Part shown: positions 38,243 to 39,767 of the stretch, piece by piece
Position numbering within the stretch: position 1 is the stretch's first letter
How the letters are laid out: every line of letters begins with the position of its first letter
NCBI GenBank assembly: GCA_019056785.1
Contig: DXJV01000015.1
Coordinates: 1-41,756, forward strand
Origin: Candidatus Heimdallarchaeota archaeon
GTDB taxonomy: Archaea; Asgardarchaeota; Heimdallarchaeia; JABLTI01
Reading direction: 5' to 3'
DNA: 41,756 nucleotides
Program-made: the position numbers and the translations under genes
Notes under the pieces: model-generated
Told to the model about the DNA's origin: nothing
The model's input: the letters and a program-made list of their open reading frames with translations, nothing else
Database searches by the model: none

Positions 38243-39734
38243 AAGAAAAAAAAGAACAAGAAAAGCATAAAAAAAAGAAGAGATAAAGGAATAAGTGGAG
38301 AAAAAAACAATGGAAGAAAAATACAAGGTGTTTCTAACAAGAAAAATACCAAAGGCAGCGCTGGACCTACTGCCGGAAAATGTGGAACTAACAGCAAATG
38401 AAGAGAACAGGGTACTAACAAAAGAAGAGATCATAAAAGGAGTAAAGGGAAAAGATGGGTTAATCTGCCTGCTGACAGACAAAATAGACGAAGAAGTAAT
38501 CAAGGAAGCAGGAGAGCAATTGAAAATAATAGCAAATTACGCAGTAGGCTATAATAACATAGATGTGGAAGCAGCAACAAAAAGAAAAATACCAGTGACA
38601 AACACACCCGGAGTGCTGACAGAAACAACAGCAGACCTGGCATTCGGACTGCTCATGGCAATAGGAAGAAGAATAGTAGAAAGCGACAAGTTTACAAGAG
38701 CAGGAAAATTCAAAGGGTGGGGACCACTATTGCAACTGGGAACAGACATACACGGAAAAACACTCGGAATAATAGGCTGCGGACGAATAGGCTCGGCAGT
38801 AGCAAGAAGAGCGAAAAAAGGATTCAACATGAAAGTACTCTATTACAACAATAAACGAAACGAAAAATTAGAAGAAGAACTGGGAGTGGAATATGCACCA
38901 TTCGAAGAACTACTGGAAAAAGCAGACTATATATCACTGCATGTCCCACTGACAGAAAAAACAAAATATATGATAAGTGAAAAAGAATTCAAAAAAATGA
39001 AGAAAACAGCCTACCTGATAAACACATCAAGAGGAGCAGTGGTGAACGAAAAGGAACTGCTGAAAGCACTGAAAAGAAAAGAAATAGCAGGAGCAGCACT
39101 GGACGTATACGAAAAAGAACCAGAAATAACAAAAGGACTGGAAAAAATGGACAACGTAATACTAACAGCACATATAGGAAGCGCAACAAAAGAAACAAGA
39201 ACAAAAATGGGAGAAATAGCAATAAAAAACCTATTACAAGGACTAAGAGGAGAAAAACCAGACAATTGTATAAACAAAGAAATATATGCCTAACAAAAAG
39301 AAAAAAGGAAAAAGGCAACAACAACAACAAAAGCAACAACAACAGGAGCTAGAAACAATAAGAGACAGCAACAACAACCAACAACCGGAAGAAGAAGAAA
39401 AAAACAGGAAAAAGAAAAGAAAAAAAACAAGAAAAAGAAGAAAAAAACTAATCAAGAATTTAGTCAATGGAAAAATCTAATAAAGAAGAAAAGCAAGAAA
39501 AAAACAAACAAAAACAAAAAGGAGAAAAAAAGAATGGCAAAAGCATACGTGCTAATAAACAGCGAAATAGGATCAGAAGCAAAAGTAGTAGAACAACTGA
39601 AAAAAATACCAGAAGTAACAGAAGTAAGCATAGTATACGGAGTATACGACGTAATAGTAAAACTAGAAGCAGAAAAAATGGAAACAATAAAAGAATTAAT
39701 AACAACAAAAATAAGACAACTAGAAAAAGTAAGA
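38243..39734 (+). other. Strand-specific T-depleted / A-rich compositional zone
   Basis: Hand count: no T-ending codon in the first 67 codons of the Lrp-type gene, and only 2 T in 39294-39448. Confidence 0.9.
38310..39293 (+). CDS. gyaR: Glyoxylate/hydroxypyruvate reductase (D-2-hydroxyacid dehydrogenase)
   Basis: AVGYNNID, NTPGVLTETTAD, GIIGCGRIG, INTSRGAVV, LDVYEKEP and HIGSAT. Confidence 0.92.
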   Translation: MEEKYKVFLTRKIPKAALDLLPENVELTANEENRVLTKEEIIKGVKGKDGLICLLTDKIDEEVIKEAGEQLKIIANYAVGYNNIDVEAATKRKIPVTNTPGVLTETTADLAFGLLMAIGRRIVESDKFTRAGKFKGWGPLLQLGTDIHGKTLGIIGCGRIGSAVARRAKKGFNMKVLYYNNKRNEKLEEELGVEYAPFEELLEKADYISLHVPLTEKTKYMISEKEFKKMKKTAYLINTSRGAVVNEKELLKALKRKEIAGAALDVYEKEPEITKGLEKMDNVILTAHIGSATKETRTKMGEIAIKNLLQGLRGEKPDNCINKEIYA

Positions 39735-39767
39735 AGTACAATGTCTATGTTAGCAAGTCAGGATTAA
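39534..39767 (+). CDS. Stand-alone Lrp/AsnC ligand-binding (RAM) domain protein
   Basis: AYVLIN...G.E..V...LKKIPEV.EV..VYGVYDVIVK...KIRQLEKVRST. GGAG RBS. Confidence 0.9.
   Translation: MAKAYVLINSEIGSEAKVVEQLKKIPEVTEVSIVYGVYDVIVKLEAEKMETIKELITTKIRQLEKVRSTMSMLASQD

Follow-up and report, generated by a model that had tools for sequence, protein, structure and literature searches.

Sharp changes of sign in base skew are described from sites of replication initiation. At bacterial and archaeal origins, and at the borders of human skew N-domains, the sign changes at a point with constant polarity and the strand running 5'→3' away from that point is T-rich (PMC3320577; reviewed in PMC3269012). The same features are found at a locus in a metagenome-assembled genome (MAG) of a Heimdall-group Asgard archaeon (GCA_019056785.1), where positions 38243-39767 of contig DXJV01000015.1 form a strongly T-poor stretch. 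The whole contig of 41,756 nt, C70 in our numbering, is referred to below as the window. The stretch contains a gyaR-type D-2-hydroxyacid dehydrogenase gene and Lrp, a gene encoding a stand-alone RAM domain. With a probability of roughly 0.6, we read it as the innermost 1.5 kb of an arm of about 5 kb, belonging to a two-armed skew focus that is produced by persistent strand-specific mutation from a fixed point, with outward DNA synthesis as the preferred source. In contrast to the skew jumps of replication origins, the skew reaches saturation, with no T at 137 free sites, and is gone within about 5 kb instead of extending over a replichore. It lies on the purine/pyrimidine axis and not on that of the usual G+T excess, there are dozens of foci per approximately 3 Mb, and no Cdc6/Orc1 gene is located at this focus.

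Fixed sites that render the neighbouring kilobases mutation-prone have also been described. Recombination-dependent restart at RTS1, a site-specific fork barrier of fission yeast, is followed by error-prone synthesis (PMC3475662), and fork-stalling repeats cause mutagenesis at a distance (PMC4928981). Slippage and rearrangements accompany these systems, and a length-variable A-rich spacer and the insertion of a genomic island are their counterparts at the present locus. The yeast barrier and the stalling repeats are experimental systems showing slippage and raised substitution rates, whereas the present locus has a strand-saturating bias fixed over evolutionary time, and a barrier is hypothetical here.

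Three further systems share part of the pattern. In vertebrate mitochondrial DNA, as here, a silent-site gradient ascribed to the time spent single-stranded prevails over codon preference and alters the composition of proteins. The mitochondrial L strand becomes A+C-rich via deamination of the H strand (C→T, A→G), whereas the rich strand at this locus is A+G, so transversions must dominate, and the gradients are of kilobase scale and start from many chromosomal points. GRINS (PMC8256042) are likewise associated with recombination and show intense local skew that recodes coding sequence without destroying it. They are repeated elements inside polyketide synthase (PKS)-type genes, whereas the present locus is single-copy, includes spacers and genes on both strands, and has a point anchor with two mirror arms. 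Diversity-generating retroelements (DGRs) resemble the locus in that one strand selectively loses adenine, with any base replacing it. No reverse transcriptase, pair of template and variable repeats or target gene was found here, and the affected DNA covers about 5 kb over several housekeeping genes.

Extent and base spectrum of the T-poor arm

The MAG comprises 2.87 Mb in 102 contigs and is 82.5% complete, with 4% estimated contamination. The base counts of 38243-39767 (A791, G314, C219, T201) correspond to 13% T, compared to 30.6% genome-wide. Within the stretch the T fraction reaches a minimum of 0.097 in 600-nt windows, and the AT skew peaks at 0.74 in 500-nt windows, the maximum of the genome. 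Log-odds segmentation of the whole MAG gave 38243-39741 as the top T-poor segment with a score of 204, followed by a runner-up at 110. The four-fold degenerate sites of gyaR are A95, C10, G32 and T0 (n=137). T makes up 0.337 of four-fold sites genome-wide, so that finding none among 137 has a probability of 3e-25 (own-strand four-fold composition of the whole genome: A.30, C.21, G.15, T.34). Where gyaR does use a T-ending codon, 20 times in all and 4 times in its last 97 codons, the site is a two-fold pyrimidine one. None of codons 1-67 of Lrp ends in T, whereas 4 of the last 10 do (Fisher p = 1.6e-4). The part of the intervening spacer at 39294-39448 holds A104, C24 and G25, with 2 T among 155 bases. 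Hand counts for Lrp, gyaR and the spacer had been given in a sequence-only reading of the window, and all of them were reproduced.

As a test of strand-boundness, the third-position bases of every gene were recast in plus-strand terms. The gene upstream of gyaR, encoding a GT4 glycosyltransferase, is on the minus strand and has the mirror-image composition, with own-strand four-fold counts of A8, C52, G20 and T91 (binomial p = 6e-17). This mirror-image codon bias of GT4 and gyaR demonstrates that the bias tracks the DNA strand, not the transcript. Against a contig background of approximately 0.1-0.2, the plus-strand four-fold AT skew is 0.84 in GT4 (minus), 1.00 in gyaR (plus) and 0.93 in Lrp (plus). 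To the left of GT4 the bias weakens, from 0.55 in a GNAT gene (minus) to 0.36 at 34965-35948 (plus) and 0.34 at 33698-34783 (minus), giving an arm length of about 5 kb. The features of the arm and its surroundings are, in window coordinates:

33698-36908, outer arm with three genes: ArsA-like (minus, 33698-34783), VTT-domain (plus, 34965-35948) and GNAT (minus)
36936-38162, minus, GT4 glycosyltransferase gene with mirror-image bias
38163-38242, divergent GT4/gyaR intergenic region in which T is retained; weak change point at 38239
38243-38309, plus, T-poor leader 5' of gyaR (A47 C3 G13 T4)
38310-39293, plus, gyaR-type D-2-hydroxyacid dehydrogenase gene without T at four-fold sites; Lys and Glu raised, Ser and Asp lowered relative to orthologues
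39294-39533, plus, A-rich low-complexity spacer (A160 C31 G37 T12)
39534-39767, plus, Lrp, a stand-alone RAM-domain gene (Lrp/AsnC ligand-binding domain, no helix-turn-helix) of 77 aa; third positions T-free to codon 67
39741-39767, flip point; the T-poor zone stops 26 nt short of the Lrp stop codon, right after ...GTA AGA AGT ACA ATG
39768-39990, pyrimidine-rich non-coding stub of 223 nt with opposite skew (A45 C61 G34 T83)
39845-41756, left end of the island, in which 40123-40338 (plus) is a small open reading frame (ORF) and 40561-41601 (minus) an SBBP beta-propeller gene

Position 38243 is no edge of the bias. It appears as one because gene orientation switches there and because the divergent intergenic region, presumably a promoter region under selection, contains T. 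The right edge is a true flip, located by likelihood at a change point at 39741, where T rises from 9.7% to 37%; no tRNA and no known RNA was found at this position. The sequence-only reading had described a bias of one DNA strand that disregards gene boundaries and ends inside the Lrp gene, and these claims hold. Its confinement of the zone to 38243-39767 does not, since graded skew extends left to 33.7 kb over genes on both strands.

In gyaR, the plus-strand four-fold composition is A.69, C.07, G.23 and T.00; the corresponding values for GT4 are A.53, C.12, G.30 and T.05. In the arm, T on the plus strand has fallen from 0.34-0.40 to 0-0.05 and C has also decreased, with gains of 0.2-0.4 for A and 0.08-0.15 for G. 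The T-poor strand is therefore purine-rich (A+G) and not A+C-rich. At two-fold pyrimidine sites C replaces T, and C amounts to.64 in gyaR compared to.21 in relatives. The resemblance to the A+C-rich mitochondrial L strand proposed in the sequence-only reading is not supported. On the outward-running strand, each of the three other bases takes the place of lost A.

The bias also reaches non-synonymous positions, and does so in mirror image in genes of opposite orientation. First-position T in gyaR is.09, compared to.12-.17 in relatives, and the encoded protein has more Lys (12.8% vs 8.2%) and Glu (11.3% vs 7.8%) and less Ser (1.8% vs 3.9%) than its relatives. First-position A of GT4, on its own strand, is.27 against.34-.37 in seven relatives; Ile, Thr, Asn and Glu are down, and Ala and Val are up.

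These shifts bear on the idea that selection on the transcript has favoured a U-poor, purine-rich gyaR-Lrp mRNA, for reasons of stability, translation or escape from U-dependent RNase. The most visible zone, from approximately 67 nt before the gyaR start codon to near the Lrp stop and including the spacer, does resemble a transcription unit in outline. On the opposite strand, however, GT4 and GNAT give U-rich, A-poor mRNAs, as do genes on contig C58 described below, and the bias declines smoothly through five genes over a distance of 5 kb. The amino-acid shifts are opposite according to gene orientation, and selection on mRNA therefore cannot be their cause. We consider this explanation highly improbable.

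Relatives, mirror arm and inserted island

The gene order, ...ArsA, VTT, GNAT, GT4, gyaR, Lrp and, about 210 nt further on, a convergent Lrp2, is kept in seven other species of the genus. The four-fold AT skew of these syntenic species ranges from -0.06 to 0.08 in gyaR and from -0.28 to 0.16 in GT4. A protein search found the pattern repeated in four other assemblies, namely GCA_021498085.1, two Logan assemblies and one JGI contig, with A98-101/T0 in gyaR, own-strand A6-8/T88-90 in GT4 and T0 in Lrp. In GCA_021498085.1, where gyaR is 98% identical, a single contig of 549 kb spans both arms and the island. The JGI contig is more distant, its gyaR having 83% amino-acid and about 71% nucleotide identity.

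An assembly, binning or chimera artefact might be suspected in a MAG with 4% estimated contamination and with the flip located 2 kb from a contig end. The recurrence in four assemblies of different source, including the 549-kb contig through both arms and the island, makes such an error virtually inconceivable. Both proteins are moreover intact, as had been claimed from the sequence alone, and orthologous.

Comparison with the JGI relative also shows that the bias is not a relic. Nucleotide differences from this MAG amount to 16-26% within gyaR and 25-42% across GT4. Four-fold identity is 0.30-0.39 in control genes, 0.41 in GT4 and 0.67 in gyaR, and the values for GT4 and gyaR are near those expected from composition only. 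The four-fold sites are thus saturated between the two. Since their turnover is complete and T is nevertheless zero in gyaR of both lineages, the bias must have been kept up continuously in both. Taken together, the seven unbiased syntenic species, the four biased assemblies and the saturation argue for a persistent process and not for an artefact, a transfer or a single burst.

In yeast and tumours, single events are known to produce clusters of strand-coordinated mutations. One ancient, now inactive burst of strand-specific hypermutation, e.g. from a single repair event on damaged single-stranded DNA, would have this precedent, and the arm length of a few kilobases matches that of resection tracts. 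After such an event, normal mutation would since have restored T. As the four-fold sites have fully turned over between the lineages, yet gyaR has T0 and GT4 6-8 own-strand A in both, we regard a burst as unlikely in the extreme. Recent recombination of the stretch between the lineages of this MAG and the JGI contig was considered as well, and is unsupported in view of the nucleotide differences in gyaR and GT4.

The second arm is located on another contig of the MAG. Lrp2, a paralog of Lrp, is encoded on C58 at 12365-12613, and C58:12578 is the strongest raw-sequence flip in the genome. Minus-strand genes to the left of Lrp2 have own-strand counts of A0/T76 and A0/T119, and the bias fades over approximately 6 kb. 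The T-poor zone ends at the identical codon position in Lrp and Lrp2, after the same ...GTA AGA AGT ACA ATG. In the contig of GCA_021498085.1, Lrp2 (167031-167279) and Lrp (178612-178845) share the convergent arrangement of the other species, but with 11.3 kb between them. In the orientation of that record, the four-fold skew is +.32, +.62, +.58, +1, +1 and +.93 toward Lrp2, then -.31, +.07, -.23, +.08, -.42 and -.76 over the island, and about -1, -1, -.83 and -.51 through Lrp, gyaR, GT4 and GNAT. With the island taken out, the locus is a symmetric two-armed focus between the convergent Lrp and Lrp2.

The proteins encoded in the island are of the SBBP, LVIVD, fn3, TSP3 and beta-flower repeat kinds, and none is a mobile-element enzyme. 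To the right of approximately 39845, this MAG and the JGI relative differ by 2.7% at 40012-40311 and by 0-1.3% beyond, compared to 23-40% in the core flanks, which identifies the island, on sequence comparison, as recently exchanged DNA. Its border at about 39845 is a recombination junction some 100 nt to the right of the edge of the bias. The insertion of this 11.3-kb island at the focus is the reason why the mirror arm is absent from the contig of the window, in which the 223-nt stub is the only DNA of opposite skew beyond the flip. The SBBP beta-propeller gene (40561-41754) has internal repeats of 49-53% identity and runs past the contig end, and these repeats are probably the cause of the assembly break.

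The junction gives some ground for suspecting horizontal transfer or recombination, by which gyaR and Lrp would have come from a donor with such codon usage and the edge would be the point of joining. A real junction is nearby, with 99-100% identity from about 40.3 kb compared to about 70% in the core, and the cargo between Lrp and Lrp2 differs in other assemblies. However, GT4-gyaR-Lrp-Lrp2 is syntenic across the genus, the best matches of gyaR are Heimdall/Asgard orthologues with 65-83% identity, and the biased DNA is on the core side of the junction, with only the island to its right having been exchanged. Moreover, no donor could supply neighbouring genes with opposite codon usage according to their orientation. 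A foreign origin of the biased genes is accordingly very hard to credit. The island border accounts for the missing opposite arm but not for the bias itself. The sequence-only view of a local mutational footprint, as opposed to a cassette transfer, is borne out by the synteny with seven unbiased species.

Several observations concern the spacer, the stub and the insertion site. The A-rich spacer between gyaR and Lrp is 240 nt long here, 282 nt in GCA_021498085.1 and 153 nt in the JGI relative. The 223-nt stub is flanked by an imperfect 12-nt inverted repeat (39780-39791 / 39980-39991), has a C8 run near 39840, and shows no detectable homology to the Lrp-Lrp2 spacer of the relatives. In another strain the C8 run is C9, and the near-identity to the JGI relative starts there. 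The sequence GTTTTTCG[CG]G occurs in three copies around the 3' ends of the two paralogs (39780-39791, 39980-39991 and C58:12613-12622), two of which form the inverted repeat of the stub. In GCA_054386315.1 (3177-5057), which encodes an identical Lrp2 protein, a PLD-nuclease/ResIII helicase gene occupies the slot adjacent to Lrp2 in place of the surface-protein island, and the Lrp-Lrp2 site appears to be a hot spot for variable cargo. Compared over 28312-41686 with the near-identical strain GCA_021498085.1, the window shows a divergence of mostly 9-15% to the left of about 31.6 kb and 0-5% to the right; this step looks like the boundary of a recombination tract between strains.

Further foci in the genome

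A scan of the genome for flips in the raw sequence was replaced by a scan of four-fold sites, because the former is confounded by gene orientation. All 14 of the sharpest four-fold flips found genome-wide lead, on the plus strand, from A-rich into T-rich sequence, and weaker flips occur in equal numbers in both directions, i.e. as noise. The genome holds many such arms, with dozens of foci at unrelated genes. A genome-wide skew scan and a search for recurring zones had been suggested in the sequence-only reading; they place the present stretch as the maximum, though not as a unique case.

A flip (+.62, +.79 / -.51) also marks the 3' end of a third stand-alone RAM-domain paralog, at C11:152535-152762. 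This locus has no island, and an island is consequently not required for a focus. Synteny on both sides of this locus is intact in five relatives, which show little or no skew (maximum +.40 / -.16). At the two RAM-gene loci examined, the skew is thus specific to the clade formed by this MAG and the JGI relative. Four-fold G+C is about 36% in this clade and about 18% in other species of the same genus, a clade-wide shift of the mutational regime that coincides with strong foci at the two RAM-gene loci.

Five further RAM-domain matches are not at foci, three of them in frames fitting full-length Lrp regulators. One of the sharpest flips, C25:21712, coincides exactly with the 5' end of a tRNA gene that contains an intron (C25:21711-21816; Rfam tRNA, 48 bits). 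ARAGORN predicted only 14 tRNAs in the MAG and missed intron-containing ones, and its result of 0 of 20 flips near a tRNA is for that reason not meaningful. The sequence GTTTTTCG[CG]G was tried as an anchor of the foci and rejected: 17 copies were found in the genome against an estimated 8 or so expected, none of them at other top flips. Six to seven of the 14 foci lie within 4.6 kb of a contig end, against about 33% expected, which as a rough count is not significant.

As T-free DNA lacks stop codons in any frame, ORF calling in T-free zones is unreliable, and statements at the gene level therefore rest on genes with orthologues. An open frame of 901 codons at C16:465-3170 has T-free third positions at codons ~240-660 and 720-780, with the last 100 being T-rich and A-poor; long ORFs in T-free zones may be spurious or fused calls. 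A LAGLIDADG homing-endonuclease ORF at C99:40723-41280 has a third-position T of 0.124, among the lowest. Four adjacent minus-strand ORFs without Pfam match at C84:166.8-170.2 kb, in which own-strand third-position T is down to 0.048, are probably part of another skew arm.

Proposed outward DNA synthesis from fixed points

In each arm, A and, less so, G are lost from the strand that points 5'→3' outward from the focus, and its partner is depleted in T and C and enriched in A and G. The loss of A from one strand and its replacement by three other bases is also what a DGR-type process would produce, in which outward transcripts from the focus were copied by an adenine-error-prone reverse transcriptase and recombined back. 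The sharp inner edge and the distal decay would then be as expected of cDNAs stopping where the RNA has its fixed 5' end. Several results count against this. No RVT_1 match was found in the MAG, although with 82.5% completeness the absence of such a gene is unproven; the only other copy of the sequence is the Lrp2 paralog, with 76% identity, and no pair of template and variable repeats was found; G/C is skewed too; and dozens of foci are located at unrelated genes. The reverse transcriptase proposed in the sequence-only reading thus found no backing, and we give the DGR-type explanation very little credence.

The preferred explanation, outward DNA synthesis, would place the fixed start point at the 3' ends of Lrp and Lrp2, the two convergent RAM-domain genes, with an effect that wanes with distance. 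DNA synthesis would repeatedly start or restart at the focus and proceed outward for a few kilobases, either from local initiation or from recombination-dependent restart of forks stalled at the focus. The outward-running strand would remain single-stranded for unusually long and suffer purine loss or adenine damage. Copying of the lesions with purines opposite would then turn T, and likewise C, into A or G on the plus strand. The 11.3-kb island would have been inserted at the focus later, parting the two arms. The exposed strand might be the template for lagging-strand synthesis in a local initiation bubble, the strand made first at a break-induced or recombination-restarted fork, or outward-pointing 3' tails. 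The observed polarity fits any outward synthesis that leaves this strand or its parental equivalent single-stranded. Resection from a double-strand break at the focus was rejected, as its polarity does not fit if the damage hits purines. The MAG contains one Y-family polymerase gene, on C65.

The decay over kilobases and the signs of instability at the flip, namely slippage-type variation in spacer length and a hot spot for insertions, would by analogy fit error-prone restarted forks at site-specific barriers (PMC3475662) and also the mutagenesis around fork-stalling repeats (PMC4928981).

Several findings weigh against outward synthesis from a point focus. No Cdc6/Orc1 gene was found near the focus; Cdc6_C matches are present only on C76 and C3, and the nearby origin considered in the sequence-only reading gains no support from the contig of the window, which has no Cdc6 gene. 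No repeated boxes were found at 39.6-40.7 kb, and the combination that marks an oriC, orc1/cdc6 together with origin recognition boxes at an AT-rich unwinding element, is not seen. The 20 refined flips share no motif, the only enriched 7-mers being A-rich low-complexity words. Relatives carry the same genes at both RAM loci with little or no skew, so gene sequence alone cannot be the anchor. The chemistry of purine loss is conjecture, since cytosine deamination, the classical damage of single strands, gives a different signature. Finally, the Lrp-adjacent island genes SBBP (-0.76) and TSP3 (-0.42) share the sign of skew of this arm, which is not predicted by a simple recent insertion into a point focus.

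A more far-reaching speculation, which we regard as tentative and on balance doubtful, is that this clade possesses dozens of fixed points of non-canonical, strand-asymmetric and highly mutagenic DNA-synthesis start or restart, a system so far undescribed in any organism, whose flanks have become purine- or pyrimidine-pure, with shifted proteins and hot spots of insertion. Stand-alone RAM-domain genes, at their 3' ends, and tRNA genes, at their 5' ends, might be among its anchors.

No description of such a process was found in the literature on skew or origins in Heimdall/Asgard archaea, and the phenomenon is apparently undescribed. The present locus contributes the strongest arm of the genome, its proof from independent assemblies, the persistence shown by saturation and the purine/pyrimidine spectrum. 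It also contributes two independent foci tied to stand-alone RAM-domain genes, and evidence that the island is dispensable for a focus.

If the preferred explanation is true, a fixed site would have imposed a near-absolute strand bias on housekeeping genes for a very long time, altering the amino-acid composition of their products. The interpretation of codon usage, of predicted horizontal transfers and of phylogenies of Asgard genes would be affected, as such genes look foreign by composition. The foci would furthermore provide a map, from sequence only, of candidate sites of initiation, arrest or repair in organisms that are hard to culture, and would point to undescribed biology of DNA replication and repair in relatives of the eukaryotes.

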